The notes: generated from the letters alone by a model not told the origin. A DNA stretch of 64,000 nt from Clostridia bacterium (GCA_017563195.1 JAFXDO010000048.1:1876-65875); one strand, 5' to 3'. Positions 9,995 to 38,087 are shown, counted from the stretch's first letter. Numbers and translations are program-made.

Positions 9995-11536
9995 ATGAAG
10001 ACTAAACTTTTTGCGCTTCTCGTCGTTATCTGCCTTCTCGCAGTTCCCTTCTTTGCGGCTTGTGAGAACGACTCCGACGAAAGCAAGGGCACCGCTTCCG
10101 GCGAAGGAATGCAGGGCGAATACCAGAACGCAGACGGCAAATACGTGGGCTCCTACAGCGTAAGCGACTGGAAGGGCGAAACCATCACCTTCCTTACCTG
10201 CAGCGTTAACACCACCTATGAATCCGAAATTCTTTACAACACCTACGAAGACGGCACCACCAAGTCGATGCCCGAGCTTCTTAACGAAAACCTCAAGTTC
10301 CGTTCGGACTTCGTCGAAGAGACTCTCGGCGTAAAGATCAAGGAAATGAAGGTTCACGACACCTCCCGTCCCGGCGGCGGTATGTGCACCGCTATCCGTA
10401 ACGGTAACCTTTCGGCTACCACCGACTACCAGATCGTTGTTCCCTGCCTTTACGACGGCGCTACTCTCGCGGTCGAGGGTCAGCTTCACAACCTTCTCGG
10501 CGAGGATTTTGAAAATCTCCAGATCGAAGCTCCCTGGTGGAACCAGGACTTCAACTCCAATATGACCTTCGGCGGTCAGCTTTACTTCACCATCGGCGAC
10601 CTCGGTACCGTTAACAAGGGCTCGACCGCGGCAATGTTCTTCAACCTCGAGCTTTGGGAAAAGTACGGCCTCTCCGAAACCTACGGCGGCAACCCCTACG
10701 AGCTCGTTCGTGACGGCAAGTGGACGGTTGACACCGTTTTCGAGGCTGCACAGACCATGGGTCAGGACGTAACCAACGACGGCAAGATCGACTACAGCGA
10801 TGAATTCGGCTGGGGCGGTCAGCTTGACGATATGTGGAGCATCTTCTACGCATCCGGCGAAAAGATCGCCAAGAACGGCGCAGACGGATACCCCGAGCTT
10901 TCGATGTACAACGAACGCAGTGCAAAGCTTATGGGCAAGCTTCAGGAATTCGTTCAGGACACCGATCACTACATCTCCGCTAACGACTACTTCGGCGTAG
11001 TTCAGTGGCCCAGCGTGCTTGTTGAAGAAGGCTTTACCGACGGCAGAGCGCTCTTCTACAACGGCAGCGTCGGCACCGTTATCAACCTCGGCGTTATGGA
11101 GCAGCACTTCGGTATACTTCCCCTTCCCAAGGCAGACGCAGAGCAGGAGAACTACTACTCTCTCGTTAACCCCTGGACCTCGACCTGCTTCGCTGTTCCT
11201 ACCTGCGTAAGCGGCGACAGCCTTACTCTCGCTATCGACGTACTTAACGTTATGGGTGCAGAAAGCCTTAACACCGTCGCTCCCAACTATCAGGAAATTC
11301 TCGAATACATGAAGATACGCGACGACGACTCCGCAGACATGCTCAACAACTACATCCTTCCCAACCGCGGATGTGACGTCGGCATGGTCTACAAGTGGGG
11401 CGCACTCGATACCCTTCTTCACGATATGGCTTCGGCAAACGTAGGCACCTTCGCTTCCTCTTACGAAGCAAAGGCTACCGCTGCTCAGAACGATCTTGAA
11501 GAAACCGTATCCTTCTTCGAATCCAACGCTAAATAA
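9995..11536 (+). CDS. Extracellular solute-binding lipoprotein (large family-1 ABC substrate-binding protein), orphan
   Basis: GGAGGAATCAT-ATG at 9995. Lipobox VPFFAAC. About 510 aa with the motifs YQIVVPCLYDG and APWWNQ. Paralog of 54851..56374 and, more distantly, of 24384..25898. No permease or ATPase genes are adjacent. Confidence 0.8.
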   Translation: MKTKLFALLVVICLLAVPFFAACENDSDESKGTASGEGMQGEYQNADGKYVGSYSVSDWKGETITFLTCSVNTTYESEILYNTYEDGTTKSMPELLNENLKFRSDFVEETLGVKIKEMKVHDTSRPGGGMCTAIRNGNLSATTDYQIVVPCLYDGATLAVEGQLHNLLGEDFENLQIEAPWWNQDFNSNMTFGGQLYFTIGDLGTVNKGSTAAMFFNLELWEKYGLSETYGGNPYELVRDGKWTVDTVFEAAQTMGQDVTNDGKIDYSDEFGWGGQLDDMWSIFYASGEKIAKNGADGYPELSMYNERSAKLMGKLQEFVQDTDHYISANDYFGVVQWPSVLVEEGFTDGRALFYNGSVGTVINLGVMEQHFGILPLPKADAEQENYYSLVNPWTSTCFAVPTCVSGDSLTLAIDVLNVMGAESLNTVAPNYQEILEYMKIRDDDSADMLNNYILPNRGCDVGMVYKWGALDTLLHDMASANVGTFASSYEAKATAAQNDLEETVSFFESNAK

Positions 11537-11554
11537 TCAATTTACGTTAATCAC

Positions 11555-11588
11555 GAAGCCCGAATAACCTTTTCGGGCTTCTTTCTTT
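11555..11588 (+). terminator. Rho-independent terminator
   Basis: Stem gaagcccgaa / ttcgggcttc, followed by tttcttt. Confidence 0.8.
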
Positions 11589-11602
11589 AATCGAGGTGGC
11601 TT

Positions 11603-12457
11603 ATGAAGATCTTATCATTCGGCGAAATACTCTGGGATATTTTCCCCGAGGAAAAGAAAATAGGCGGCGCGCCCTTCAACTTCGCGTCTCACGTTGCCCG
11701 TCTCGGTGCCGAAAGCTATATGGTCTCCTGCGTCGGAAACGACGAAAACGGCGTTGACGCACTTAAGGAGGTCGAAAGGCTCGGTATCAAGCGCGATTAT
11801 ATCTCGGTCGACCGTAAATATCCCACCGGCTATTGCGCGGTAACGCTCGACAACGGAAAGCCGAGCTACGACCTTGTGAGAGACGTGGCATACGACCACA
11901 TTCCCGACGTCTGCCCGAGAGAAAGCTTCGACGCGCTTTATATGGGCACGCTCGCGCTCCGCTCCCCCGACTCCCGCAGAAGCTTCGAAAAGCTTTTGAA
12001 ATACGTCAAGACGCGCGAGGTGTTCTTCGACGTGAACTTCCGCGGCAATTTCTATACACGCGAGCTTGTGAACACACTTTTACGTGAAACGACTATACTT
12101 AAAATAAGCGACGAGGAGATCGGATTCTTCGGCAAGCGCGACCACGTCAACGTATGTCTCGACCTTTCGAAAAGCTATCCGAAGCTCAAGTATATCTGCC
12201 TGACGCTCGGCGGCGACGGCGCGATGATATACGATTGCCGCAACAAGACGGTGCTTTATTCCGAAAAGCCGAAGGTTGACGTCGTTTCAACGGTAGGCGC
12301 GGGCGACAGCTTTGCGGCGTGCTTCCTTGCAAGCTATCTTTCGAACCTCCCCGTCGAAAAATGTCTCGACCGTGCGGTAAGGCTTTCAAGCTACGTTGTG
12401 ACTCAGCTCGGTGCCGTTCCCGATTACGACCCTCAGACGCTTTTTGCGGGAATCTGA
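11603..12457 (+). CDS. PfkB-family carbohydrate kinase (fructokinase-like)
   Basis: N-terminus FGEILWDIFPEEKKIGGAPFNFA and C-terminal VSTVGAGDSFAA (PfkB signature 2). Confidence 0.8.
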   Translation: MKILSFGEILWDIFPEEKKIGGAPFNFASHVARLGAESYMVSCVGNDENGVDALKEVERLGIKRDYISVDRKYPTGYCAVTLDNGKPSYDLVRDVAYDHIPDVCPRESFDALYMGTLALRSPDSRRSFEKLLKYVKTREVFFDVNFRGNFYTRELVNTLLRETTILKISDEEIGFFGKRDHVNVCLDLSKSYPKLKYICLTLGGDGAMIYDCRNKTVLYSEKPKVDVVSTVGAGDSFAACFLASYLSNLPVEKCLDRAVRLSSYVVTQLGAVPDYDPQTLFAGI

Positions 12458-12514
12458 ACCGAAATCAAGCGATAATACCGTTTTTGCCGTTCTGCTTTTT
12501 CTTGAAAAAAACTG

Positions 12515-12543
12515 TTGCATTTCGCGGCAAAATGTATTAAAAT
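12515..12543 (+). promoter_or_regulatory. Sigma-A-type promoter for the small membrane protein gene
   Basis: TTGCAT, 17 nt, TAAAAT. Confidence 0.55.
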
Positions 12544-12571
12544 ATACGTAATATTATTTGGAGGTTATACC

Positions 12572-12811
12572 ATGGAAATCCTTAAGAAGTACTTTCCGTT
12601 TTCTTTCGTAGAAAAGAAAGACGTCGTCGCACTCATCATCAACATCGTTATTCAGCTCGTTATCGGTCTCGTTATCGGCTGGGTCATCAGTCTTTGCGGC
12701 GGCATTCCCGTGATCAAGTGGATCGTAGGCCTTGTCGGCGGTCTCGTTGATCTTTATTTCCTCGTGGGCATCGTTCTTTCCTGCCTCGATTACTTCAAGG
12801 TTCTTAAGTAA
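12572..12811 (+). CDS. Small two-TM membrane protein (79 aa), unknown function
   Basis: GGAGG lies 7 nt before ATG 12572; the track start at 12515 is upstream of the RBS. Two hydrophobic helices. The gene has its own promoter and a strong terminator. Confidence 0.55.
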   Translation: MEILKKYFPFSFVEKKDVVALIINIVIQLVIGLVIGWVISLCGGIPVIKWIVGLVGGLVDLYFLVGIVLSCLDYFKVLK

Positions 12812-24318: not shown

Positions 24319-24347
24319 TTGACAGCTTCGCGAAAAAGATATATAAT
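24319..24347 (+). promoter_or_regulatory. Consensus sigma-A promoter of 24384..25898
   Basis: TTGACA, 17 nt, TATAAT. Confidence 0.7.
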
Positions 24348-24383
24348 ATTGTGTAGGAAAAAGCATTGGAAAAGAGGTATTTT

Positions 24384-25898
24384 ATGCTCAGAAGAATCTC
24401 GGCTTTGTTGCTTTGCACGTTACTTTGCATCTCGACCTTGCTTCTCGTTTCCTGTAACAAGGATGGCGGCGAGGGCAGCAATTCGGGAATCAAAGAATTC
24501 GGCTCGGCAAGCGACAAGGGCTTTTTGAACGAACAGATCGACTGGCAGGGTGAAACCATCACCGTCCTCGGCTATAACGGCGAGTTCTCGTATCACTCGA
24601 TTCAGATCGCCACCGAGGAGCAGACCGGCGAGGCTTTGAACGACGCGTTTTACGAAAGAAACGCAAAGATAGAAGAGCTTTTCAACCTCAACATCAAGGT
24701 TGAGCTTCCCGGCACCGGCGAGGACACCGGCGTTATGATAAAGAACGCGGTTCTCGGCAACTCCGCAGACTACGATGCGGTCGTCGCACCCCTGTACATA
24801 TTGGGTCTTTATCTCCCCGAGGATATCTTCCTCGACTTCAACTCGATCGAAAACGATTACCTCCACCTCGACGAGGCTTGGTGGGATCAGGAGCTTCAGA
24901 AGCAGGTTGCGGTCAACGGAAGCGTTTACTTCATCGCAGGTGACGCACTTATCGAGGACGACGAGGCGACCTGGGCAATGTTCTTTAACAAGGATATGTA
25001 CAACTCGAACGCTAACCTCGCGGAGCGCGGAAGCATTTACGACATCGTCAAGAACGGCGAATGGACCCTTGACGTTATGTACGAAATGATCAGCGACGTT
25101 GAGTACTCGACGGGCGAGCAGAAGGTATGGCATCCCGACTCCGAGGACAAGTGGGGTATGGTAACTCAGATGCTCGACTTCTATCTCTTCATGCAGGGCT
25201 GCGGTCAGACTATGATCGACAACACCGGTGACGTTCCCGAGCTTCGCGGCGGCACCGAGGAAAACATCAACACCTTCTATGACGTAGCCGCCGTGCTTCT
25301 CGATGAGGAAAACGTCGGCTGTGCGGAGCTTCACGTAAGCTGGAACGACGGTCACCCCTACCAGATGAAGCGCCAGATATTCGGTAACGGCAACGCGCTC
25401 TTTATGCCGAACCAGCTCGCGGTCATCGGTCAGTCGGAAATAAGCGAGGCGGAGATCAACTACGGTTTGCTCCCCATGCCCAAGAAGAATGAGAATCAGG
25501 AGTACTACACCTCGGGCGTCGAGGTATATCACTACTCTGCAATCGCACTTCCCGCGACTGCACAGGGCAAAAAGCTTGAGGCTACCTGCTATGCACTCGA
25601 GGCGATGGCGTACTACGGAAACCAGATCGTCAACGACGACTACTACGAAAGAACTCTTACCTACAGACGCTTCAAGGACGATGAATCGGGCGATATGCTC
25701 GAGCTTATCCTCAGCAACAAGACCTATGATATGGGCGCGATCTTTAACTTCAAGGGCGGCGAGGGCATGCACGGCACGCTCGGCTTCTACACCGACCTTT
25801 ACATCGAAAAGAGAACCGACATCGTTTCTCACTGGGAAAGCGTAGTCAACTCGTATCAGACCGGCATCAACAAATTCGTTGAGCAATGTAATTCCTAA
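24384..25898 (+). CDS. Extracellular solute-binding lipoprotein, orphan (third paralog)
   Basis: AAGAGG RBS before ATG 24384. Lipobox LLLVSC. Same overall architecture as 9995..11536, but more divergent. Confidence 0.75.
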   Translation: MLRRISALLLCTLLCISTLLLVSCNKDGGEGSNSGIKEFGSASDKGFLNEQIDWQGETITVLGYNGEFSYHSIQIATEEQTGEALNDAFYERNAKIEELFNLNIKVELPGTGEDTGVMIKNAVLGNSADYDAVVAPLYILGLYLPEDIFLDFNSIENDYLHLDEAWWDQELQKQVAVNGSVYFIAGDALIEDDEATWAMFFNKDMYNSNANLAERGSIYDIVKNGEWTLDVMYEMISDVEYSTGEQKVWHPDSEDKWGMVTQMLDFYLFMQGCGQTMIDNTGDVPELRGGTEENINTFYDVAAVLLDEENVGCAELHVSWNDGHPYQMKRQIFGNGNALFMPNQLAVIGQSEISEAEINYGLLPMPKKNENQEYYTSGVEVYHYSAIALPATAQGKKLEATCYALEAMAYYGNQIVNDDYYERTLTYRRFKDDESGDMLELILSNKTYDMGAIFNFKGGEGMHGTLGFYTDLYIEKRTDIVSHWESVVNSYQTGINKFVEQCNS

Positions 25899-25920
25899 AC
25901 AGACTCTTTAAATGCAAATA

Positions 25921-25975
25921 CGGCACACAGTCGAGCAAGCCTTACGGGCAATGCGTCACGGTGTGCCGTTTTTTT
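25921..25975. terminator. Bidirectional terminator closing the SipW/TasA-like operon and the SBP gene
   Basis: Arms cggcacac / gtgtgccg enclose a structured ~32-nt loop. T7 run on the + strand and a moderately U-rich tail on the - strand. Confidence 0.65.
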
Positions 25976-25980
25976 ATATC

Positions 25981-27408
25981 TTAATATTCAGCGGGCATTC
26001 TCTTTGCAACCGCAAGGAGAACCGCTCCGATCAACGCCATCGTCGCCATCGCGATATAGAAGCCGATCATACTCTTGTCGCCCGGCTCTATAGGCTCTTC
26101 AACGACGTGATATACGTTGGTAAATTCGAACACGCTGTCCTCAGCCGCTTCGCCGTTAACGGTTATATCGGCTACGAGTGTGTTATCGACAACGTCTACC
26201 GAAATGACGATCTCATACACGGTGTCGCTGTAGGTCACGCCGACAACATTGCCCTTCTTTTCGCTCAGCTTATAGCTGTACTCGCCGATATCCTCGTGGG
26301 TGAACACGATATCGAGCTTTGCCGCACCGTTTTTATCGGTCACAAGCTCAAGTGTTTCGCCGCTTTCGACGCTTTCAAGGAGGAACACGAAGCCCTCGGG
26401 TCCGATTTCCTTATCGCCCGTATTGTTGACGGTCTTATCGACAGTCACCGTGACGCTGATGTCCTCGGGGTCGGGAACGAAGGTGTTATTGAAGACAACG
26501 TAAAGCTCGTATATATCGTTTTCCTCGTCGTAAGCCGAGGTGACGTTCTGCTTTGCCTCGACCGAAGCGATTTCAAGCTTGCCGTCCATATCGTCATCGC
26601 TTACGCTTATAGCGAAGTAGTTAACCGTCTTGTCGTAATCGACGTTTTCGAGATCCCCCTCGATTTCCGAGATCCTGAAGCTGTAATCGCCGATGTTGCC
26701 GAATTCAAATTCCTGCAGAGCAGCGCTGAGGTTAAATTTGTTATAATCGGCATTTGCGGCATCATACTCAACCTTTGCCGTAGCGAGCTCTGTCCATTCA
26801 CCGTCTACGCTTGCTTCAAGCAGGAATTCGAAGAAGTCGCCCTCTGCCCAGTCTCTGCCCTCGAGCTGCTTTTCGCCCTCAAGGAAGACGTTGTCGAGAG
26901 TGAGCGTCGAAGGAGTGTAAACGTTTATAAAATCAGCCCTTGCGCCGCCGTCGGGAAGGATACTGAGCGTCTGAGTCGACTCGATGCCCTCTTTCAGTGC
27001 AAAGCCGTTGCGCGTCGTGATTTCGGTTACCTTTACCTCGGTGCCCTCTACTATGCCGTCTATTCCGATAGCGCTGTTCGCTGCAAGAGTGACGACGAAG
27101 CTGCCGTCCGAGTCGCACTGTACGACGCCCTTGTCGGTCAAAAGCGTCGTGCCGGAGTAAGCGCTTCCGAGCTCGACCTTGAAGTCAAAGGTAATATCGG
27201 CGGGAATAACGTAATCGTCGCCGTAAGGATGCTCGACGGTTTTGCTGATAACGAGACTGCTTACCGGACTTTTCGTTGGATTGAATATATTTACGATAGA
27301 ATCGGTCTGCGTGACGATAAACGCAAGCGTCGACTGCACTGCAGAGCTGATTATCAGCACGAGTGCAAGTATCATCATTATGCTTTTCTTGCTTCTGATC
27401 CTGTTCAA
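25981..27408 (-). CDS. Pilin-isopeptide-repeat surface protein with SipW-type N-terminal signal and C-terminal membrane anchor
   Basis: TTG start with an AAAGGAG RBS 9 nt upstream. The N-terminus SSAVQSTLAFIVTQTDSIVNIFNP resembles the signals of the upstream genes. The body has one Cna-B-like repeat and two Spy0128/TIGR03786-like repeats (LEGEKQLEGRDWAEGDFFEFLLEA; GPEGFVFLLES...GEYSYKLSEKKGNVVGVTYSDTVYEIVISV...FTNVY). The C-terminus is PGDKS, then a 22-aa hydrophobic helix, then a KR tail. No LPXTG. Confidence 0.6.
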   Translation of the reverse strand: MNRIRSKKSIMMILALVLIISSAVQSTLAFIVTQTDSIVNIFNPTKSPVSSLVISKTVEHPYGDDYVIPADITFDFKVELGSAYSGTTLLTDKGVVQCDSDGSFVVTLAANSAIGIDGIVEGTEVKVTEITTRNGFALKEGIESTQTLSILPDGGARADFINVYTPSTLTLDNVFLEGEKQLEGRDWAEGDFFEFLLEASVDGEWTELATAKVEYDAANADYNKFNLSAALQEFEFGNIGDYSFRISEIEGDLENVDYDKTVNYFAISVSDDDMDGKLEIASVEAKQNVTSAYDEENDIYELYVVFNNTFVPDPEDISVTVTVDKTVNNTGDKEIGPEGFVFLLESVESGETLELVTDKNGAAKLDIVFTHEDIGEYSYKLSEKKGNVVGVTYSDTVYEIVISVDVVDNTLVADITVNGEAAEDSVFEFTNVYHVVEEPIEPGDKSMIGFYIAMATMALIGAVLLAVAKRMPAEY

Positions 27409-27435
27409 AATCGCCTGCTCCTTTCAAGATATTTT

Positions 27436-27497
27436 CGGTGTTCAAGAGATACAAAGCGCGTTTATATCCCTTGAACACCGCCCCTCTTAACGAGGGG
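27436..27497 (-). promoter_or_regulatory. Two-hairpin intercistronic element, copy D
   Basis: Minus-strand RNA: cccctc-gttaa-gagggg, then cggtgttcaag...cttgaacaccg (an 11-bp outer stem plus an 8-bp inner stem). It ends 27 nt before the TTG start at 27408. Confidence 0.6.
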
Positions 27498-27526
27498 TGG
27501 CGGATAGAATCGTCAAATCGAAATGA

Positions 27527-28270
27527 TTATGCCCAGGGGTTGGTAGGAAGACCCGAAGCGGTGAAAGCTTCATCTGCGGTATCAAAGCCGGAAGCCTGAA
27601 CTGCCTGAGCGTATACGGGGATCTTAATACCGTTCGAGAAGTCGTAATTGATAACGGTGTCGCCGAGAGTGTAGTTGGTGCCGTCGAAGTCAACCTTGGA
27701 GTCAAGGTAGAAGCCAACGAATGCTGCGGTGGTGGTGTCGCCTGCAGCGAGGATGCCGCCGTAGGTGAATACGTAAAGGTTGTAATCAACGCCGTCGATT
27801 TCAACAGTCTCAACGCCCTTCCAGGAGTACTGGGTAGCGGGGATTGCATTTTCGCCTTCGGGGATGTACTTGTTGCCAAGGTTCCAGTGAAGTGCGTTGG
27901 TAGCAGCGGACGTGATGGATTCCTCGAGTGCAGCGGGAACTGCAACGATAACGCGAACGTATGCATCGTTTGCGCCGGTGTTTTCAACACTTACGATCTT
28001 GTCAACGTAGTTCTTGGCAACGGGCATACCAAAGGAGTCCTTTTCGCCCTGTGCAGAGCCGACTATGGGCATAAGGAGCTTGTTCTGCTCAAAATCCTCG
28101 AGTGCGGTGCCGTCTTCGTTACGCTGCTGCTCGATAAGATCGATCTGAACGTTACCGATGGTCATAACGTTGATTTCTTCGTCGGTGTCGGTGAGATAAG
28201 CAACGGTGCCTGCGATTGCGAGAGCCGCAACGAGAACGATGCTTACCGTCATAAGCAAATACTTTTTCAT
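27527..28270 (-). CDS. TasA/camelysin-like secreted protein with SipW-cognate signal peptide (247 aa)
   Basis: N-terminus MKKYLLMTVSIVLVAALAIAGTVAYLTDTDEE, then NVMTIGNVQIDLIE. VENTGANDAYVRV motif. C-terminal AQAVQASGFDTADEAF. Confidence 0.75.
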   Translation of the reverse strand: MKKYLLMTVSIVLVAALAIAGTVAYLTDTDEEINVMTIGNVQIDLIEQQRNEDGTALEDFEQNKLLMPIVGSAQGEKDSFGMPVAKNYVDKIVSVENTGANDAYVRVIVAVPAALEESITSAATNALHWNLGNKYIPEGENAIPATQYSWKGVETVEIDGVDYNLYVFTYGGILAAGDTTTAAFVGFYLDSKVDFDGTNYTLGDTVINYDFSNGIKIPVYAQAVQASGFDTADEAFTASGLPTNPWA

Positions 28271-28324
28271 GGTGTTTGCTTCCTTTCTTTATTTTTTTAT
28301 TTTTTCGTACTTTATGCCGTTTTC

Positions 28325-28389
28325 GCGGCAATCAAGAAGCGCAATACGGCTTACGTCCCTTGATTGCCGCCCATCCCCGAGGGGGATGG
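28325..28389 (-). promoter_or_regulatory. Two-hairpin intercistronic element, copy C
   Basis: Minus-strand RNA: ccatcccc-ctc-ggggatgg, then gcggcaatcaag...cttgattgccgc. Confidence 0.6.
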
Positions 28390-28426
28390 TACGGACTTGG
28401 TTGCCTTTTTACACGGATCAACTCGA

Positions 28427-29932
28427 TTAACCGATCAAGTTACCGTCGAGATCATAGTAAACGGAGTCGTTGAAGCCGAAACGAATGGGCTTTGCGCTAT
28501 CGGAAGTATTGTTGTTGTCATAGATGTCCAAATTCAAAGTGGAATCATCCTTGCCTTCCGAAGTATAGTTATGTACCCAGAACACTCTACCGTTATGGAA
28601 ATCGGTATTTTCAATGGTGACGTTGTTCATATCGTAGCCGGAGTTGAAGACACGAACTGCACAGTAGGTGGTTGTGAAATCACAGTTGTTCACATTCAAA
28701 GTAGCTTCGCCCCAGTTGTTCAGGTGAGCAACGAAGTTCATGTCGGTTCCGCTGACATTTGCAGTCACGCCTTCAATATTGAGAACGCCGCCTGCAGTCA
28801 CATCAAAGATAGTAGCCATAGCGTTCCATCCCTGATTGTTTTCAGCAGTTAATTCCAAAGAACCGTTCTTAACAGTCATTTCGCCCTTAACGTTGAAGAG
28901 CTCCTGATTACCGGTAGTATTAGCGGTAGCGGAAATCGTGTAGCCGTTCAGATCAAGAACGACACTCTTGCCCTTGGGAAGAGAGAAGGTAACGTTATCT
29001 ACAGCAATATCATCAGCCAAAACAATGTTGCCACCTGCAGCGAAAGCGGTCTTGAATTCTTCAGCAGTGTATACTACTGCAGGAAAATCAACGCCGCTGA
29101 CCCAAGGATGGTTGTTAGCGGTGATTTCGCCGAATGCTGCGTCGAGAGCGGTAGCAGCATCGTCAAAGCCCTTAGCCTGAACCGCCTGAGAAATAACGAG
29201 GATATCGTAGGTGCCGTTGCCGTTGCCGTCGAGAGCTTCAACGTCTTCGTTGGTTGCTTCGGGCGCCAGATAAACCTGGAGAAGGCTGGGGTACGAAACC
29301 TTGCCTGCAGCGAGGATACCGTTAGGGTTAGAGGTAGCGCCAACATAAGTAGCGGAGACGAGAACGTATTCGCAACCGTCGATTACAACGTCGGTTGCAA
29401 CGGTTTCCCATGCCCAGCGAGTGCTGTCACCGTTGGTTCCGATGATTTCGTCGAATCTTTCAGCGGTAACGCCGCCCTGTTCGAATGCAAAGACAGAACG
29501 AACGTAAGCGTCGGTCTTGCCGGTGTTTTCTACGAAAACAAACTTGTCGATAACGTTCTTTACGCTGTCATCAAAAAGCTGAACCGCGCCGGGAGCACCG
29601 ACCTGTGCCCAAGACTGCTGATAAGTGCCGTTATTGCGGTCGTCCCACTTGATCTGACCGTCAGCGAAAACCGCGGGATAAAGGGGCTTTGCCTGAGTGT
29701 ATTCCTGAAGCTCGTCGGGAGTGTAACCGTACTTATCCACGTCGCCCGTAGATACCCAGTTACCGTTTTCGTCGACAACACGTTCGTATTCGTGCTGTGC
29801 GATCTTAACGTTACCAACAGTCATTACGTTGACGTCGGTAGGAGTTTCGAACTGGAGGTATGCAAGAGTTCCGACAACCGCGAGAGCAGCAACGAGAACA
29901 AAGCTTACCGCCATAAGCAAATACTTTTTCAT
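28427..29932 (-). CDS. TasA/camelysin-like N-domain fused to a C-terminal parallel beta-helix domain (501 aa)
   Basis: SipW-type signal MKKYLLMAVSFVLVAALAVVGTLAYLQFETPTD, then NVMTVGNVKIAQHE. VENTGKTDAYVR. After HPWVSG come repetitive beta-helix rungs of about 22 aa each (LNVNNCDFTTTYCAVRVFN, VTIENTDFHNGRVFWV). Confidence 0.7.
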   Translation of the reverse strand: MKKYLLMAVSFVLVAALAVVGTLAYLQFETPTDVNVMTVGNVKIAQHEYERVVDENGNWVSTGDVDKYGYTPDELQEYTQAKPLYPAVFADGQIKWDDRNNGTYQQSWAQVGAPGAVQLFDDSVKNVIDKFVFVENTGKTDAYVRSVFAFEQGGVTAERFDEIIGTNGDSTRWAWETVATDVVIDGCEYVLVSATYVGATSNPNGILAAGKVSYPSLLQVYLAPEATNEDVEALDGNGNGTYDILVISQAVQAKGFDDAATALDAAFGEITANNHPWVSGVDFPAVVYTAEEFKTAFAAGGNIVLADDIAVDNVTFSLPKGKSVVLDLNGYTISATANTTGNQELFNVKGEMTVKNGSLELTAENNQGWNAMATIFDVTAGGVLNIEGVTANVSGTDMNFVAHLNNWGEATLNVNNCDFTTTYCAVRVFNSGYDMNNVTIENTDFHNGRVFWVHNYTSEGKDDSTLNLDIYDNNNTSDSAKPIRFGFNDSVYYDLDGNLIG

Positions 29933-29974
29933 TGTCTTTGCTTCCTTTCTCTATTTTTTTATTTTTCCGATTTT

Positions 29975-30039
29975 GTGCCGTTTTGCGGCAATCAAGAAGC
30001 GTAATAGTGCTTACGTCCCTTGATTGCCGCCCATCCCCG
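29975..30039 (-). promoter_or_regulatory. Two-hairpin intercistronic element, copy B
   Basis: Minus-strand RNA: cccatcccc-tc-ggggatggg, then gcggcaatcaag-gga-cgtaa-gcacta-ttacg-ctt-cttgattgccgc. Confidence 0.6.
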
Positions 30040-30099
30040 AGGGGATGGGACGGACGTTCTGACTTTTTCCGTTCAGCACGGAATAAGTATAATTTGCAA

Positions 30100-31716
30100 T
30101 TACTGCTCGTGAACGGGAGTTACTTCAACGTTCCATTCGATGGTTTCGTGAACAACCTTACCGCATTCGCAGTAGTACATAGCGGAGTCAGCGCCACCGT
30201 TTTCGATAACGTTGCCTTCACCGTTGATCACGCAGTCGTTGCAGCCGTAGTCAGCGCCTTCGAGCTGGATACCGTAAACGAATGCCTTACCGTTTTCGCC
30301 GGTAACGATGGTGTTGTTGTTGAAGTTGATGATAGCCTTATCGAGCTTGGTTGCGGTGTCAGCCTTTGCGGTGAGCTGAACTGCATAGCGATAGGGATCA
30401 TTGAAGGTGCAGCCTTCAACGGTAACGTTGCCGGTAGCACGGATAGGTCTCTGACCGTTGCAGTTGAACACGCAGTTCTTAACAACGATAGAGGTGCCTT
30501 CGTTGGTGTCCCACCAAGAGGTGATAGCGGTGGAGTTGTTGAGGCTCATATCGAAGGTAACGCCGTTGCAGACAACAGTCTGGTTACCCCAGATTGCGAT
30601 AGCGGACTTGCCGGTCTGCGAGATACCGGTGGAGTCAGCGATGGAATCGTCAACCTTAACGGTAACGCCGTTGAGAGTAAGAGTGCCTGCGGTGCTGGAG
30701 GTAGTAGCGATCTGGCCGGAGAGAACAGCGTTCTTGGAGCCGTTGATGGTTACGTCCTTGCCGCCGTCGAGCTTAAGATTGGTGGTGTATGCGCCATCCT
30801 TAAGATTGACGATAACGTTCTGATTTTCTGCGATTGCAGCTGCGAGCTCGGCAGAGTCAGCTACTTCAACAACTACAGGGAAATATTCCTCTGCGCCGCT
30901 GACCCAAGGATGGTTATTAACGGTGATGTCGCCGAATGCTGCGTCGAGAGCGGTAGCAGCGTCGTCAAAGCCCTTAGCCTGAACTGCCTGAGAAATTACG
31001 AGGATGTCGAAGGTGCCGTTGCCGTTGCCGTCGAGAGCTTCCATATCCTCGTTGGTTGCCTCAGAGCTGAGGTAAACCTGAGAAAGGTTGGGATAGGTGG
31101 TCTCGCCTGCGGGAAGGATGCCGTTGTCATGTCTTACGCCGTCAGCGCCTTTGTAAATATACTCGAGGAGTTCGTAGTTATTGTTGTCGATGGTAACAAC
31201 GCCGATGATGTTACGAGTCCAGTTCATATGGTAGGACGTACCGATGAGAGAGCTGTCGGCAGAACCGATCTCAAGTGCAACGATAGTACGAACGTAAGCA
31301 TCGGTCTTACCGGTGTTTTCAACGGTAACGAACTTATCCTGCGCGTTTTCGGAAACGAAAACCTGCATTCCGCCGTAGGAATCAACCTGAGTCATTCTTA
31401 CGGTAGTAGCATCCCAGGTACCTGCACCGTGGTTAACGGGGTTGCCGTTAGCGTCGATCTCGGTTACGGGCAAAATGGGCTTCGCCTGAGTGAAGTCCTG
31501 AAGCACGTAGCTGGTTACGTTGTCGATCGTTTCGGTCTTGTACGAGCCGTCAGCGTTAACTGCGCGTTCGTATTCGTGCTGTGCGATCTTTACGTTGCCA
31601 ACGGTCATTACGTTGACGTCGGTAGGGGTTTCGAACTGGAGGTATGCAAGAGTTCCGACAACTGCGAGAGCAGCAACGAGAACAAAGCTTACCGCCATAA
31701 GCAAATACTTTTTCAT
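30100..31716 (-). CDS. TasA/camelysin-like N-domain fused to a C-terminal parallel beta-helix domain (538 aa)
   Basis: The first ~50 aa are identical to those of 28427..29932. After HPWVSG the C-terminal half is divergent and carries beta-helix rungs (VVKNCVFNCNGQRPIRATGNVTVEGCTFND, INFNNNTIVTGENG). Confidence 0.7.
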   Translation of the reverse strand: MKKYLLMAVSFVLVAALAVVGTLAYLQFETPTDVNVMTVGNVKIAQHEYERAVNADGSYKTETIDNVTSYVLQDFTQAKPILPVTEIDANGNPVNHGAGTWDATTVRMTQVDSYGGMQVFVSENAQDKFVTVENTGKTDAYVRTIVALEIGSADSSLIGTSYHMNWTRNIIGVVTIDNNNYELLEYIYKGADGVRHDNGILPAGETTYPNLSQVYLSSEATNEDMEALDGNGNGTFDILVISQAVQAKGFDDAATALDAAFGDITVNNHPWVSGAEEYFPVVVEVADSAELAAAIAENQNVIVNLKDGAYTTNLKLDGGKDVTINGSKNAVLSGQIATTSSTAGTLTLNGVTVKVDDSIADSTGISQTGKSAIAIWGNQTVVCNGVTFDMSLNNSTAITSWWDTNEGTSIVVKNCVFNCNGQRPIRATGNVTVEGCTFNDPYRYAVQLTAKADTATKLDKAIINFNNNTIVTGENGKAFVYGIQLEGADYGCNDCVINGEGNVIENGGADSAMYYCECGKVVHETIEWNVEVTPVHEQ

Positions 31717-31768
31717 TGTCTTTGCTTCCTTTCTTTATTTTTTTATTTTTTTGATTTTTTGCCGTTTT

Positions 31769-31831
31769 GCGGCAATCAAGAAGCGTAATAGTGCTTACGA
31801 TCCTTGATTACCGCCTCTCTGTTACAGAGAG
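31769..31831 (-). promoter_or_regulatory. Two-hairpin intercistronic element, copy A
   Basis: Minus-strand RNA: ctctctg-taa-cagagag (different sequence, same hairpin position), then gcggtaatcaag...cttgattgccgc with one G-U pair. Confidence 0.6.
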
Positions 31832-31837
31832 CGGTCA

Positions 31838-32599
31838 TTAATTGTTGAATACCTTTTCGGGGTCGATGCTCGGGAATGCCGCCTCAAGCGCCTCTTCGGC
31901 GGTGAGGTTGCCCATATTATCGGACTGAACAGCCTGCGCCTTGACGTAAATATCGAACGAATCGCCGAAGGACTCGCACATTTCGTTGGTCACAGCCTTG
32001 TCGAGGTAGACCTGCTTGAGCGAGGGTACCGTGGTTTCGCCGGGCTGAACGGGGTTAAGATAGGTTACGACCGCAACTGCGCAGGTGCTGCCGTTTACGT
32101 TATAAAATCCGTCGAGCCATTTCCACTCGCCGATTTCCGACGTGCTGTTCTTATCGTTTACGACAACGTGAATATAGGGATCCGCCACGGCATTTTCGCC
32201 GACCTCTACTGCAATAAGGGTGCGGACGTAGGCGGCGTTGGTGCCGGTATTGGTGACGGTCACGAATTTATCGATAACGCCGGAGTTATCGGCAACGACC
32301 TTCCAAGCAGAGTCGTTGGGAACCACCCATTCATCGGCGGGAGCCCATTCGATGCTGCTTCCGCTGTAATAGGTAGGATAAATGGGGCTGTTTTCATACT
32401 GAACGAGAGTGTGCTCGTTTTCTGTACAATCGACGCGAGCCTGCTCGTTTATGCGGACCTCTACCCTGCCGACGGTGACCACCGAGCCCGAGTTTTCCGC
32501 CTCAGACGAAAGATAAGCCACGGTACCCGCAACCGACAAAGCGGAAACGAGTATAACAGCGAGGAATATTAAAATTAAGCCTTTAACGCCGATTTTCAT
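31838..32599 (-). CDS. TasA/camelysin-like secreted protein with SipW-cognate signal peptide (253 aa)
   Basis: N-terminus LSVAGTVAYLSSEAEN, then SVVTVGRVEVRINE. VTNTGTNAAYVRT. C-terminal AQAVQSDNMG...AEEALEAAF. Confidence 0.7.
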   Translation of the reverse strand: MKIGVKGLILIFLAVILVSALSVAGTVAYLSSEAENSGSVVTVGRVEVRINEQARVDCTENEHTLVQYENSPIYPTYYSGSSIEWAPADEWVVPNDSAWKVVADNSGVIDKFVTVTNTGTNAAYVRTLIAVEVGENAVADPYIHVVVNDKNSTSEIGEWKWLDGFYNVNGSTCAVAVVTYLNPVQPGETTVPSLKQVYLDKAVTNEMCESFGDSFDIYVKAQAVQSDNMGNLTAEEALEAAFPSIDPEKVFNN

Positions 32600-32644: not shown

Positions 32645-33223
32645 TCAGCCGTTTGCCTGATTTGCCTCTGCAAGCGCCCAAGCCTCTGCGGGGGTATCGA
32701 TAGCGTCGATATCGCTATCGCGCTGAACCGCGTATGCAGTGAAGGTGAGCGTGGGCTTTTCGGTCAATGCATTGAGCATTTCCTTGGTGACCTCGTCCTT
32801 GACCTTGACCTTATTATCCTCGAGCACGTAGTATTCGACGTCGCTGTCACTCTTTGTGCTTTCAAGGTAATAAACTCCGACGTAGCCGTCGAGCGGGGTC
32901 CATTCGGAGGACACGGTGTATTCCATAAAGGTCGAAAAATCAGCGGATTCCTCGATCTTGACGAAAACGTAAGCGTTTTCACTTTCCGCGAGGACGGTAA
33001 CGACAGGGTCCTTATCGATAGTCTTGCCGGGTACCATATCGTATTCGTTTATCGAGGGATCGCCGTCGCCGTCGTCGGTTTCCTCAAGCGTTATGTCAAT
33101 GTCACCGTAGGTGAAGGTATTCACAACGGGCTCGGTGGTGTCGCTGAGCCAAGCAACGGTGCCTCCGACAATTCCGCAAAGTATCAAAGCGATAGCGGCG
33201 AACATCAAGGCTGTTCTTTTCAT
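32645..33223 (-). CDS. TasA/camelysin-like secreted protein with SipW-cognate signal peptide (192 aa)
   Basis: N-terminus GIVGGTVAWLSDTTEP, then VNTFTYGDIDITLEE. C-terminal AYAVQRDS...PAEAW. AAGGAGG RBS. Confidence 0.7.
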   Translation of the reverse strand: MKRTALMFAAIALILCGIVGGTVAWLSDTTEPVVNTFTYGDIDITLEETDDGDGDPSINEYDMVPGKTIDKDPVVTVLAESENAYVFVKIEESADFSTFMEYTVSSEWTPLDGYVGVYYLESTKSDSDVEYYVLEDNKVKVKDEVTKEMLNALTEKPTLTFTAYAVQRDSDIDAIDTPAEAWALAEANQANG

Positions 33224-33238
33224 ATCAACGGTACCTCC

Positions 33239-33892
33239 TTACTTAATTTCTTCTTCGAACGCAGACCATGCCTCATCGGCGTTTCCTTCAAAGCCCGACG
33301 CCTGTATCGCGTGTGCCTCGAAGATGATCCTCAATCCCGAGAGAGTCTTGATCTGTTCGTTGTTTATATCACCCGAAAGCGTGATCGAGGTGATGAAGGG
33401 CTCGAGCGGAATTTCGTCCTGAGTCGAATTTCCTGCGATTTTATAATAGCGATATTCGTAATACGCGCTTCCGTCTTCGTTAAGCGTTTCCGAAACGTAC
33501 TGCCAAACGTTCGCATCATAGCCTGTTGCGAAATCGGTCGGCTTAAAATCGTCACCGTAGATCGTCTTAAGATCGCGTGCCTTATTCACGGTCACGATGA
33601 GTCTGATATAGGATTCCTCGCTGTTTGTAAGCAGCGTAACGGTAGGATCCATCGCATAGGTTCTGCCGGGGAGAAGATGGTAGTCGTTCGCCTTCACTCG
33701 CTCCGCACCGGGAACAAGCGTGCCGTCGCTGTTGGCTTTGGCCTCGTCAAGCTTGATATCGACCTTGCCGACGGTAAATATGTTCGTGGCAGAATCGTCA
33801 TCGATCATCACCATAAGCGTTGCAGATACCGCACAAATAAGCAGCAATATCGCACAAACCGATGCAACGATTATCTTTGTCGAGCTTTTCAT
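33239..33892 (-). CDS. TasA/camelysin-like secreted protein with variant SipW-type signal (217 aa)
   Basis: N-terminus ICAVSATLMVMIDDDSAT, then NIFTVGKVDIKLDE. C-terminal AHAIQASGFEGNADEAWSAF. AGGAAAGGAG RBS. Confidence 0.65.
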   Translation of the reverse strand: MKSSTKIIVASVCAILLLICAVSATLMVMIDDDSATNIFTVGKVDIKLDEAKANSDGTLVPGAERVKANDYHLLPGRTYAMDPTVTLLTNSEESYIRLIVTVNKARDLKTIYGDDFKPTDFATGYDANVWQYVSETLNEDGSAYYEYRYYKIAGNSTQDEIPLEPFITSITLSGDINNEQIKTLSGLRIIFEAHAIQASGFEGNADEAWSAFEEEIK

Positions 33893-33949: not shown

Positions 33950-34531
33950 TTAAATTTGTTGGTTCTCTTCGGATTTTTCTTCGGTTTTTTCGGCTTCCCG
34001 GCCGCCGTTTTCCTCGCCGTCGTGCTTTTTGATGTAGTCCGAGACAACGTCCACGAGCATTACGAACAGCACCAGCGCAATTCCGACCGCAATAGCCAGA
34101 TATACGCCGGGGGGCGACTGAATATAGGTTGCGAGATAGCCCAAAAGCGGCAAGCCGAAGACAGCCTTGCCCACTATCTTGCTTTCGTGGACCGGTGCCG
34201 AATCGGGCACGTCGTTGGCTACGCCCTGCGTGCGGAACCACAGCTCGGTCGGGTTACTTTCGTCGGGGTAGATTTCGATGATACGGTGGGTCGCCGTCTG
34301 CGTCGCGGTAATATTGAAGGTGATATCGTCGCCGACCTCGAGCGACTGCGGCTCGACCTGCTTTACGTAGATCAACCCGCCCGTGTGATATTCGGGCTCC
34401 ATCGAGCCTGAAAGCACGGTGTATACCTCGAAGCCGAGCAGCTTCATTCCGACAAGCAGAAACGCCAGCAAAACGACCACCGCAACCAAAACGTATGCAA
34501 TTACCTTAAGCGTGGTGCCCAAATACTTCAT
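33950..34531 (-). CDS. sipW: Signal peptidase I, SipW (archaeal/ER-type S26B) subclass
   Basis: The YTVLSGSMEPEYHTGGLIYV catalytic Ser box and the THRIIE His box are typical of SipW-type enzymes. It has N- and C-terminal TM helices and a charged tail. The start is ambiguous: I prefer ATG 34531 (MKYLGTT). In-frame ATGs at 34573 and 34648 lack a convincing RBS or lie upstream of the predicted promoter. Confidence 0.8.
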   Translation of the reverse strand: MKYLGTTLKVIAYVLVAVVVLLAFLLVGMKLLGFEVYTVLSGSMEPEYHTGGLIYVKQVEPQSLEVGDDITFNITATQTATHRIIEIYPDESNPTELWFRTQGVANDVPDSAPVHESKIVGKAVFGLPLLGYLATYIQSPPGVYLAIAVGIALVLFVMLVDVVSDYIKKHDGEENGGREAEKTEEKSEENQQI

Positions 34532-34585
34532 AATAAATATATGCTTTCTCCGCAAAAGGGGAAAATCCCCCATATTCCAAAGTGT

Positions 34586-34614
34586 ATGATAACACTTTCC
34601 CAACACTTTTTCAA
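34586..34614 (-). promoter_or_regulatory. Sigma-A-type promoter of the sipW/TasA-like operon
   Basis: On the minus strand: TTGAAA, 17 nt, then TGtTATCAT (extended -10). Confidence 0.6.
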
Positions 34615-34720
34615 GAGGAAAAGGAAAAAAAGAAAGGGTTTTGTTCATCTTTTTTTAACATTTTTTGACTTTTCGGCGAATTTAACCGTTTCTTATCCGA
34701 GGAACGGTCGAAAAGACCTG

Positions 34721-36618: not shown

Positions 36619-37241
36619 AAAAATGTGTGATAATCGGCGGTGCACCGATAAATGATTACGAAAATACAAGGCGTCACATCGGAGACGACGACTTCGTGAT
36701 AGTCTGCGATTGCGGGCTTAAGCATCTTGACGGGCTGAAGCTCGAGCCGAGCCTTATCGTCGGCGATTTCGACTCGCACAAGCGTCCCGAGATCGACGTC
36801 GAAACCATCGTGCTCCCCCGCGAAAAGGACGATACCGACACCTTTTTCGCGGTCAAGGAGGCGGTCGCACGCGGCTTTGACGACTTTTTGCTCGTCGGAG
36901 TGATCGGCAAGCGAATCGACCACAGCCTCGCCAATCTTTCGATACTGCTGTATCTCGACGATCTGAAGCTGCGCGCAAGGGCTTTGGACGATTATTCGTC
37001 GCTCGAGATAGTCTCTCGGCAGGTTGCGCTCGTCGACGACTCGCACCCCTTCTTTTCGTTGCTCGCCATCGACGGCAAGGCGGGCGGAATCAGCATAAAA
37101 AACGCGCTCTTCCCTCTCGAAAACGGAGTTATCTCGCCCGACTATCAATACGGTGTAAGCAACGAGGTTTTGAAGGGAGAAACCGCCGAGATCCGTGTTT
37201 CAAGCGGCAGGCTTTTGCTTGTGAAGGTAATAAAGGAATAA
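36615..37241 (+). CDS. thiN: Thiamine diphosphokinase
   Basis: IVGDFDS, EKDDTDT and GRIDHSLANL motifs of thiamine pyrophosphokinases. ATGA overlap start. Confidence 0.85.
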   Translation: MKKCVIIGGAPINDYENTRRHIGDDDFVIVCDCGLKHLDGLKLEPSLIVGDFDSHKRPEIDVETIVLPREKDDTDTFFAVKEAVARGFDDFLLVGVIGKRIDHSLANLSILLYLDDLKLRARALDDYSSLEIVSRQVALVDDSHPFFSLLAIDGKAGGISIKNALFPLENGVISPDYQYGVSNEVLKGETAEIRVSSGRLLLVKVIKE

Positions 37242-37270
37242 AAAAAGGGCTGCGGTTGCAGCCTTTTTTG
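37241..37270. terminator. Bidirectional terminator
   Basis: aaaaaa-gggctgc-ggtt-gcagcc-tttttt. Confidence 0.8.
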
Positions 37271-37271
37271 T

Positions 37272-38087
37272 TTATCTTGCTTCCTGCATCTTTTCGGTCA
37301 TTCTCGCGATCTGGCTTTCGAAGAAATTTACGTAGTTTTCGTAAAAATAATTCGTATCGGTGGAGGAATCCCCGATTATCGCGATCAGCTCGAGCGCCTT
37401 TTCGGTCTCGCCTATCGCAGACGCATATTCGCCCTTCTCCTCGAAGCATTCGGCGAGGTGCCACATCATCTGTATCAGATTCTCGAACGACACCCATTTC
37501 TGCTTTTCCGCCGCTTCGTATTTCGCGCTTCCGTTAAGCACGTAAGCTATCTCGGTAAGTCGCGTAAAATATATCTCGGGGATCTGCTCGATAGCCCTTT
37601 TCGCGCTGTGCATATCGCCCTTTGCCTTATAGGAATACGCAAGAAAGCGCAGAGCGTCGTATTTGATGCCGTGATCGGTCGCCTTTTCGATAAGCTTTGT
37701 CGCTATCCCTATCGCCTCGTCGGGATTTCCCGAATAGTCGATAACGTAAAGCAGGTTATTGAGAAGTATATCGTTTTCGGGATATTTGCGGAGTCCCGAT
37801 TCGAGTATGCGTCTACTCTGCTCGGGGTCGCTCTGACGGTATTTGTACGCCTCGTCGGCTATACGCTCGACCTCCTGCTCGATCTCCTGCAGATTAAAAT
37901 CGAAAAGCTCGTCCATCGTCACACCGAAATAGCTTGCAAGTATCGGCGCAAGGCTGATATCGGGCAGTGCGATGTTGTTTTCCCATTTGCTGACAGCCTG
38001 AAAGGATATCCCTATGCTCGTGGCAAGCTGCTCCTGCGTGATGCCGCGTTGCTTTCTTAGTTCTCTGATCTTGTTTCCTATGTTCAT
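37272..38087 (-). CDS. XRE-family HTH regulator fused to a TPR-like helical repeat domain
   Basis: N-terminus IRELRKQRGITQEQLATSIGISFQAVSKWEN (Cro/C1 HTH), followed by about 200 aa of helical repeats. Confidence 0.75.
   Translation of the reverse strand: MNIGNKIRELRKQRGITQEQLATSIGISFQAVSKWENNIALPDISLAPILASYFGVTMDELFDFNLQEIEQEVERIADEAYKYRQSDPEQSRRILESGLRKYPENDILLNNLLYVIDYSGNPDEAIGIATKLIEKATDHGIKYDALRFLAYSYKAKGDMHSAKRAIEQIPEIYFTRLTEIAYVLNGSAKYEAAEKQKWVSFENLIQMMWHLAECFEEKGEYASAIGETEKALELIAIIGDSSTDTNYFYENYVNFFESQIARMTEKMQEAR

Follow-up and report, generated by a model that had tools for sequence, protein, structure and literature searches.

Why does one operon carry the same pair of hairpins in four of its intergenic gaps? 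We address this question for a TasA-like operon within a 64,000-nucleotide (nt) stretch of DNA from a Clostridia bacterium (GCA_017563195.1, JAFXDO010000048.1:1876-65875); the whole stretch is referred to here as the window. The operon is a single minus-strand unit, with a sipW-type gene first and a pilin-like gene last, and an earlier sequence-only reading had drawn attention to a two-hairpin element repeated in its last four gaps. We find that this tandem hairpin, located 3' of TasA-like genes, represents a conserved RNA family, and we weigh the roles that it might play in the operon.

Four tandem hairpins in the TasA-like operon

Each of the four copies, A to D, consists of a GC-rich hairpin (H1) abutting a hairpin of ~20 bp (H2) on the coding (minus) strand. 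Their positions, as established from sequence, fold, and covariance models (model R3, described below, and for copy A also model R1), are as follows, together with the spacers that lead from copies A and D to the ribosome binding site (RBS) of the next gene.

Copy A, 31769-31831, minus strand: H1 at 31815-31831 (CTCTCTG-TAA-CAGAGAG), H2 at 31769-31814
Copy B, 29985-30049, minus strand: H1 at 30030-30049 (CCCATCCCC-TC-GGGGATGGG), H2 at 29985-30029
Copy C, 28325-28389, minus strand: H1 at 28371-28389, H2 at 28325-28370
Copy D, 27436-27497, minus strand: H1 at 27481-27497 (CCCCTC-GTTAA-GAGGGG), H2 at 27436-27480 (20 continuous pairs)
Spacer of copy A, 31717-31768, minus strand: AAAACGGC, then an A-rich run and the RBS AAAGGAAG
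Spacer of copy D, 27409-27435, minus strand: RBS AAAGGAG, followed by the TTG start codon (27408)

The sequence-only reading had located copies A, C, and D exactly, whereas copy B, given as 29975-30039, was 10 nt away from its real span; the H1 sequences that it quoted are correct. It had also counted four paired substitutions between the outer H2 stem of copies B and C and that of copy D, where we find three (CAA/TTG to TGT/ACA), and a single U-G pair in the outer stem of copy A, which is indeed present. The inner stem of copy D pairs as described, although over 9 bp, including two G-U pairs, rather than 8 bp.

H1 begins 5-6 nt past the stop of tasA-like gene 3 in copy A, 50 nt after the stop of the gene for a 538-amino-acid (aa) protein in copy B, 37 nt after that of a 501-aa gene in copy C, and 27-29 nt after that of a 247-aa TasA-like gene in copy D. 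H2 comprises 19-20 stacked positions in the window copies, which fits the stem of about two helical turns of an RNase III substrate, and its base reads CGGCAAUCAAGG. An alignment of the four gaps shows that the spacers of copies B (29933-29984) and C (28271-28324) are near-identical to that of copy A, in which AAAACGGC can either pair with the end of the H2 3' arm (GCCG-CAAAA-CGGC) or close the junction via CCG upstream of H1.

The minimum free energy (MFE) of the gaps lies between -39 and -48 kcal/mol, and none of 200 shuffles folds as well as any of the four. The corresponding z scores are -6.8, -5.9, -4.7, and -5.8 for copies A, B, C, and D, respectively; these values, and the abundant compensatory changes found in relatives, uphold the proposal of a conserved nucleic acid structure. 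The pattern TCAAGG-N10-30-CTTGA gave seven matches against 0.6 expected, four of the seven being the elements themselves, and the H2 arms of copies D and B rank first and fourth among the longest inverted repeats in the window. The three upstream gaps (sipW/tasA1, tasA1/tasA2, and tasA2/tasA3) are short, and neither their sequence nor a covariance model search gave a hairpin or an element there, including directly after sipW. In the entire 64 kb, an early covariance model run unfiltered likewise returned the four copies and no further site.

A conserved RNA family in Clostridia

Loci for comparison were collected via the 247-aa protein aligned to 29 homologues, which gave 80 loci from species-representative genomes; the locus titles include Oscillospiraceae, Acutalibacteraceae, Faecousia, Ruminococcus, Christensenellales, and Anaerovoracaceae, among others. 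A MAFFT alignment of the four window copies placed H1 in four registers and was unusable; the first covariance model was therefore seeded from copy B alone and the rest were re-aligned by Infernal. This copy-B-only model matched two-hairpin elements on the TasA strand of loci L071, L003, L052, and L068, just 3' of a TasA-like gene, and in L071 and L003 the element lies directly 5' of a pilin-like gene with a TTG start, the same arrangement as for copy D. The TTG codon of the pilin-like gene is common to the window (27408), L071 (7724), and L003 (11675), and constitutes a conserved weak start.

Model R3 was built from nine genomes with the window excluded, and has an H1 of 8 bp directly abutting an H2 of 13 + 5 model pairs. 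At E <= 1e-3, 56 of the 80 loci have an R3 match on the TasA (plus) strand; model R2 adds L003 and L052, which brings the total from the iterated covariance models to 58 of 80 TasA-like loci. Applied to the window with filters off, R3 recovers exactly the four copies, B at 48.1 bits (E = 9.6e-10), C at 37.2 bits (E = 3.8e-7), A at 31.7 bits (E = 7.6e-6; 76.1 bits with model R1), and D at 30.2 bits (E = 1.8e-5), with the rest of the 64 kb at <=13 bits. The window copies are a divergent subtype of the family with unchanged geometry. Copy D occupies the position that is kept in other genomes (L071, L003, and many more loci). Other operons hold the element two or three times, in each case 3' of a TasA-like paralogue (L060, with three copies at 10824-12688, L034, L054, L021, and L046); given the arrangements in L060, L034, and L054, multiple copies are not unique to the window.

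The sequence-only reading had suggested a covariance model search of related genomes, and had allowed that its proposal would fall if relatives lacked any structure at these positions; the search found the family in other Clostridia, at the frequency given above, and the proposal thus withstands this condition. We conclude that the tandem hairpin 3' of TasA-like genes is a conserved RNA family spanning many Clostridia genomes.

Two other approaches were less informative. A home-made RNAfold detector of two adjacent hairpins after an open reading frame (ORF) was dropped as noisy, having flagged 163 of 1009 plus-strand and 65 of 756 minus-strand ORFs. The pattern GGCGGNNNTCAAGGN{12,30}TCTTGANNNCCG was sought in metagenomes; soil, freshwater, and marine contigs were among the matches listed, none of these with H1 or a TasA context.

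Several loci showed features of their own. L202 (1-1200) is a 1640-nt metagenome contig from the same species as the window, with a 247-aa protein that is 99% identical; here a B-type element comes after the C terminus of the 538-aa protein, and the 247-aa gene is next, with no 501-aa gene in between. This layout reflects either recombination between the repeated elements and leaders, or an assembly collapse of the repeat. The B-type H2 of L202 differs from that of the window in the loop only (GCACTA to GCTATA). In L010 (~2070-2140), some 13 GTAT repeats lie just upstream of the RBS of a TasA-like gene and could be prone to slippage. L072 ends (2813-2908) in long G and C runs followed by poly-A, which looks like an assembly artefact, and a weak model match there was therefore discounted.

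Covariation and anatomy of the RNA

Alignment A10 comprises 33 genomes fitted to the covariance model. In it, 94.4% of cells pair in standard fashion and each of the 26 pairs has changed on both sides, while none of 500 shuffles reaches any of five measures, and sliding the partners by 1-3 columns leaves 32-51% pairing. RNAalifold independently predicts the same helices, namely 8 bp for H1, and 14 bp, a 1x1 position, and 4 bp for H2. With one position excepted, G-U pairs number 55 against 12 A-C mismatches, and wherever matches on the two strands overlap above 30 bits, the plus strand scores higher (for example, 74.3 versus 43.3 bits). The excess of G-U pairs and the higher plus-strand scores place the signal in the sense transcript, not in duplex DNA.

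H1 has 8 bp and is 79% GC; its base is usually CUGC...GCAG, and its commonest loop is of 4 nt (14 of 33 sequences), mostly UUCG or CUCG. H2 follows with zero linker, its 5' start usually reading (G)CCAUAUGAG or GGCAUAC, and its apex is often CCCGR-loop-YCGG. C-A and U-G are isosteric wobbles, and one or the other occupies position 15 of H2 in 27 of 33 genomes, as a C-A mismatch in 21 and as U-G in 6 more. In the window copies the H2 mismatch is displaced by one position from this family site, being A-C in copies B and C and U-C in copy A; copy D has none.

Around the junction, further pairings can be drawn. One joins the 3-6 bases 5' of H1 to the start of the H2 5' arm; at column pair 5-47, 11 sequences have CG and 10 have GC, and column 47 shows a second covariation, with column 127, to which it is paired in H2. 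Another can join the H1-base CAG to the CUG directly after H2, and in ~30% of members, window copies A to C among them (GCCG-CAAAA-CGGC), the end of H2 can fold into a small third hairpin. These alternative helices are of 3-6 bp and partly conserved, with mean z scores of -1.7 for the pairing designated a:b', -0.9 for Y:tail, and -0.6 for a:tail; for the Y:tail duplex of copies A, B, and C the values are -3.9, -2.0, and -3.0. From the aligned sequences, we judge the alternative junction pairings to be real but short. The MFE folds of copies A and C contain a three-way junction closed by CCGU/ACGG, which might, as a possibility only, extend to the family, where the flank pairings predicted are short and variable.

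The element is anchored to the upstream gene

Of 68 instances of the element, 61 follow an ORF with a SipW-type signal peptide, and the remaining 7 are explained by failures of a crude ORF caller or by contig ends. The window copies likewise lie on the coding strand, within ~5-60 nt of the stop of a gene with such a signal. Across the family, H1 begins a median of 24 nt past the stop. Between H2 and the start codon that follows, the median is ~60 nt and the range 17-260 nt, with one exception that is due to a spurious overlapping 91-aa ORF call, and the product of the downstream gene may be pilin-like, TasA-like and small, or longer than 1000 aa. Given the tight spacing on one side, and the variable spacing and varied genes on the other, we reasoned that the element is anchored to the upstream TasA-like gene. 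The sequence-only reading was thus right to place it in the last four gaps, but its description of the copies as lying upstream of the last four genes is better replaced by downstream of TasA-like genes. In the typical operon, the element separates sipW and the first TasA-like genes from downstream accessory genes.

After H2, the tail usually begins with CUG and continues as mixed sequence with no U-run. In the window, the 10 nt after H2 contain 0, 0, 0, and 2 U residues in the four copies.

Genes of the operon

The remaining features of the operon are listed here in the direction of transcription.

34614-34586, minus strand: promoter-like site at the operon start, TTGAAA-17-TATCAT
33950-34648, minus strand: gene 1, sipW-type signal peptidase I (TIGR02228, E = 1.3e-26)
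33239-33892, 32645-33223, and 31838-32599, minus strand: genes for three small proteins, each with a SipW-type signal peptide (matches to TIGR04088 and, weakly, PF12389)
30100-31716, 28427-29932, and 27527-28270, minus strand: paralogues of 538, 501, and 247 aa, respectively, with nearly identical signal peptide regions
25981-27408, minus strand: last gene, starting with TTG and encoding a pilin-like protein that has isopeptide domains (PF12892 FctA, E = 1.3e-16; TIGR03786, E = 1.3e-15)
25916-25973, strand not assigned: hairpin ACGGCACAC...GTGTGCCGT, then U-rich ATTTGCATTT (inverted repeat I11 and sequence)

Gene 1 also matches the SipW family NF046067 (E = 2.8e-28), but below the cutoff of that family; its ORF is as listed, and its true start is probably an ATG near 34531. 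A copy of the element is present 3' of each of the three paralogues. The 247-aa protein has 1543 homologues, the best match outside its own species being 60% identical. In the 30-member alignment that combines the 247-aa protein with its 29 homologues, 21 sequences match Pfam family PF12389 (Peptidase_M73/camelysin, the TasA family); the window's own 247-aa protein gave no PF12389 match in Pfam, and a profile of the TasA-like proteins gave no match to PDB sequences. We use the label TasA-like because of the PF12389 matches in 21 of 30 members and the SipW-cognate signal domain. The 538-aa protein has a C-terminal Cys-containing motif, YYCECGKVVHETIEWNVEV (window 30100-30200), which is kept at the C terminus of the 518-520-aa paralogues in L061 and L062, where GC-rich hairpins follow too.

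The operon's real terminator is probably the hairpin at 25916-25973, which separates the end of the operon from a convergent gene on the plus strand. This plus-strand gene (24366-25898) is preceded by a perfect TTGACA-17-TATAAT promoter (24319-24347), and its product has a lipoprotein-like N terminus. A minus-strand ORF at 24420-25886 is probably the shadow of this gene, and the TasA-like operon is therefore taken to end at 25981.

Comparison with known classes of element

A terminator scan of the region found no terminator-like site at the elements. We rejected a canonical Rho-independent terminator because the element has no U-tract and lies inside the operon, while the same window uses hairpins with U-tracts as terminators elsewhere. 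Ten promoter-like sites were found in the region against 11.7 expected by chance; the sole match in the four gaps, TTCACG-16-TATACT (9/12, at 30113-30086 on the minus strand), overlaps the end of the 538-aa gene. A sigma-70 promoter was likewise rejected, since this 9/12 match is within chance expectation. The earlier view that the copies are neither classic terminators nor sigma-70 promoters is therefore sound.

An Rfam search, which had also been suggested, gave no matching family in Rfam 15: there was no match in the window, matches were at chance level in the region, and only tRNAs were found in 11 carrier loci. Below threshold, no family recurred in six carrier loci. The Mahella-1 match to copy C was rejected, scoring 18.6 bits against a gathering threshold of 70.7 and not recurring in other members. 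Elsewhere in the window, a subthreshold match to PrrB/RsmZ (37166-37272, plus strand; 23 bits against a gathering threshold of 44, E = 0.058) overlaps the hairpin of a bidirectional terminator (37242-37269) and is probably due to chance.

A dispersed repeat of the repetitive extragenic palindrome (REP) or miniature inverted-repeat transposable element (MITE) type was rejected, since all strong matches in the 64 kb and ~1.2 Mb of flanks lie in TasA-like clusters on the coding strand, and a relic of gene duplication was rejected since the element is syntenic and covarying in genomes with only 35-60% protein identity. Sequestration of the Shine-Dalgarno (SD) sequence by an anti-SD sequence in the H2 3' arm was also set aside, the distance to the RBS being variable and the complementarity, judged by eye, inconsistent. 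With regard to riboswitches and attenuators, we saw short alternative pairings and a variable distance to the RBS, and found neither a terminator nor a platform for SD sequestration.

Possible roles of the tandem hairpin

The role that we favor, though at somewhat less than an even chance, is that of an operon-internal processing and stabilization signal that shields the upstream cistron at its 3' end, following the SRPS (selective RNA processing and stabilization) logic. The element would punctuate the polycistronic operon post-transcriptionally. An endoribonuclease would cut the transcript, either RNase Y in the single-stranded flanks or RNase III within the ~20-bp H2, in which case H1 would be left as a 3' cap; the highly stable hairpins would then block 3'-to-5' exonucleases. 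RNA polymerase would still read through, and the upstream cistron, encoding a TasA-like fibre subunit, would accumulate above the downstream genes. This proposal draws on the position of the element, its stability, the lack of a U-tract, and the anchoring to the upstream stop; it has in common with SRPS the presence of stable intergenic stem-loops inside a polycistronic operon for a multi-subunit product.

A number of observations weigh against such a role. H1 and H2 are joined without a single-stranded linker, which makes a cut between the hairpins unlikely. Judging from the alignment, the geometry and partial sequence kept across orders exceed the needs of a generic exonuclease block, the conserved bases being CUGC...GCAG in H1, the wobble at position 15 of H2 in 27 of 33 genomes, and CCCGR/YCGG at the apex; the stem-loops of the cip-cel operon, discussed below, were reported to have no shared conserved sequence (PMC10311766). 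In addition, window copies A to C were duplicated or converted jointly with the downstream 5' leader and signal peptide region, which also fits a downstream role, and copy D ends ~10 nt before the RBS.

The last two points bear on the possibility that the element acts as a 5' leader for the downstream gene, which, after a cut upstream of H1, would be protected from RNase J or tuned in translation. Copies A to C are near-identical from H2 through the A-rich spacer and RBS into the signal peptide codons of the gene that follows, the pilin-like gene after copy D and after the L071 and L003 copies has kept its TTG start, and the abundant cip-cel transcripts have stem-loops at both ends (PMC10311766). 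We nonetheless consider this role unlikely, since it is the distance to the upstream stop that is tight, while the next start may be 17 to 260 nt away and belong to any of several types of gene, and the element has no consistent complementarity to the downstream RBS. A leaky, factor-dependent terminator, or attenuator, at which part of the polymerases would stop after the TasA-like gene while the rest read through, is rated as somewhat improbable. A precedent is the sipW-bsaA operon of Clostridium perfringens, where a terminator was predicted right after the TasA-like bsaA, the same position, and a short, abundant mRNA of 1.4 kb is found beside a 7.3-kb read-through mRNA (PMC7395162). One cip-cel stem-loop also acts as an internal terminator (PMC10311766), and internal terminators set the stoichiometry of ABC transporters in cellulolytic Clostridia (PMC9045158). 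A few family members do have moderately U-rich tails, for example CUGUUUUAGG in L004. The family tail is otherwise CUG with mixed sequence, however, the window copies have at most two U residues in the 10 nt after H2, and a consensus scan calls none of them in a window where canonical U-tract terminators are used elsewhere.

The pairings at the H1/H2 junction would be accounted for if a dedicated factor, either an RNA-binding protein or a nuclease with its specificity complex, used the element as its specific recognition module or as a conformational switch, with mutually exclusive pairings at the junction. Pairing of the 5' flank with the start of the H2 5' arm, the near-equal use of CG and GC at columns 5-47, the second covariation of column 47 with column 127, the potential pairing of the H1-base CAG with the CUG after H2, the third small hairpin in ~30% of members (copies A to C included), and the conserved wobble and apical sequence are all in keeping with it; the operons encode no candidate binding protein, though, the alternative helices are short and only partly conserved, and no terminator or SD-sequestering expression platform accompanies them, and we therefore regard it as quite unlikely. 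To judge by the sequences, the junction can undergo branch migration, the 5' flank competing with the H2 3' arm, and the H1 base with the 3' flank, for the same bases. On the strength of this branch-migratable junction, the C-A/U-G wobble at a fixed position, and the conserved H2 apex, there is a small chance that the element is a dedicated module rather than a generic stabilizer, that is, a specific site of binding or cleavage for an as yet unknown factor that controls the ratios of fibre subunits in Clostridia. Such a tandem hairpin could respond to a signal, pH being one candidate because the C-A+ wobble depends on protonation. Finally, a feature at the DNA level, whether a palindromic protein site, a mobile repeat of the REP/MITE type, or a leftover of duplication, is highly improbable. 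H2 is a near-perfect inverted repeat in DNA, and the repeated copies seem to have mediated rearrangement in the strain variant L202; yet the arms covary instead of keeping one sequence, the G-U pairs are strand biased, no copy was found outside TasA-like clusters in the 64 kb and ~1.2 Mb of flanks, and the same syntenic position recurs in dozens of genomes at 35-60% protein identity.

Relation to known systems and significance

RNase III processing hairpins are found between cistrons in the early mRNAs of phage T7 and at the SP82 sites in Bacillus. The tandem hairpin resembles these in its intercistronic location and in the ~20-bp length of H2 with one internal irregularity, and cleavage would leave the upstream 3' end protected by a hairpin; it differs from them in the addition of a GC-rich H1 and of conserved sequence features. 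It shares with Rho-independent terminators a GC-rich hairpin directly after the stop codon, but has two abutting hairpins, no U-tract, and an operon-internal position.

Closer parallels are found in Clostridia. In the cip-cel operon of Ruminiclostridium cellulolyticum, intergenic stem-loops serve as signals for endonucleolytic cleavage and as end protectors, setting subunit stoichiometry (PMC10311766, PMC4423207); cleavage is thought to be due to RNase Y, and the more complex stem-loops are found at 3' ends (PMC10311766). Both cases involve stable intercistronic stem-loops in a long Clostridia operon for subunits of an extracellular assembly (PMC4423207, PMC10311766), often two per gap, mostly without a U-tract, and 3' of the cistron that is, or for the tandem hairpin would be, the more abundant. 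The tandem hairpin, however, forms a single family, kept across many genera, in which the geometry is fixed, bases are conserved, and the hairpins abut without a linker, whereas the cip-cel stem-loops reportedly share no conserved sequence or structure; for the tandem hairpin, moreover, processing is something that we infer. The predicted terminator of the C. perfringens sipW-bsaABCRSD operon belongs to the same type of operon and also lies directly after the gene for a TasA-like subunit, where it divides an abundant promoter-proximal mRNA from a less frequent read-through transcript (PMC7395162); compared by description only, it differs in that it is described as transcriptional, while the tandem hairpin has no U-tract.

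A full-text literature search returned nothing linking camelysin or TasA to an RNA motif, and the first 200 of the 408 supplementary files of a survey of structured RNAs in the human microbiome contain no Peptidase_M73 or camelysin entry. The intercistronic stem-loop that tunes the output of an operon is a known kind of element; a single family of fixed geometry, tied to one gene family across Clostridia, appears to be new, and enlarges the repertoire of cis-RNAs by an uncatalogued family. Should the element indeed define or protect mRNA ends, it would offer a compact and portable part for tuning gene ratios in synthetic Clostridia operons. TasA-like fibres are matrix or appendage proteins that are widespread in Clostridia genomes and metagenome-assembled genomes, many of them from gut samples, and the tandem hairpin family provides a handle on post-transcriptional control in these hard-to-study organisms.

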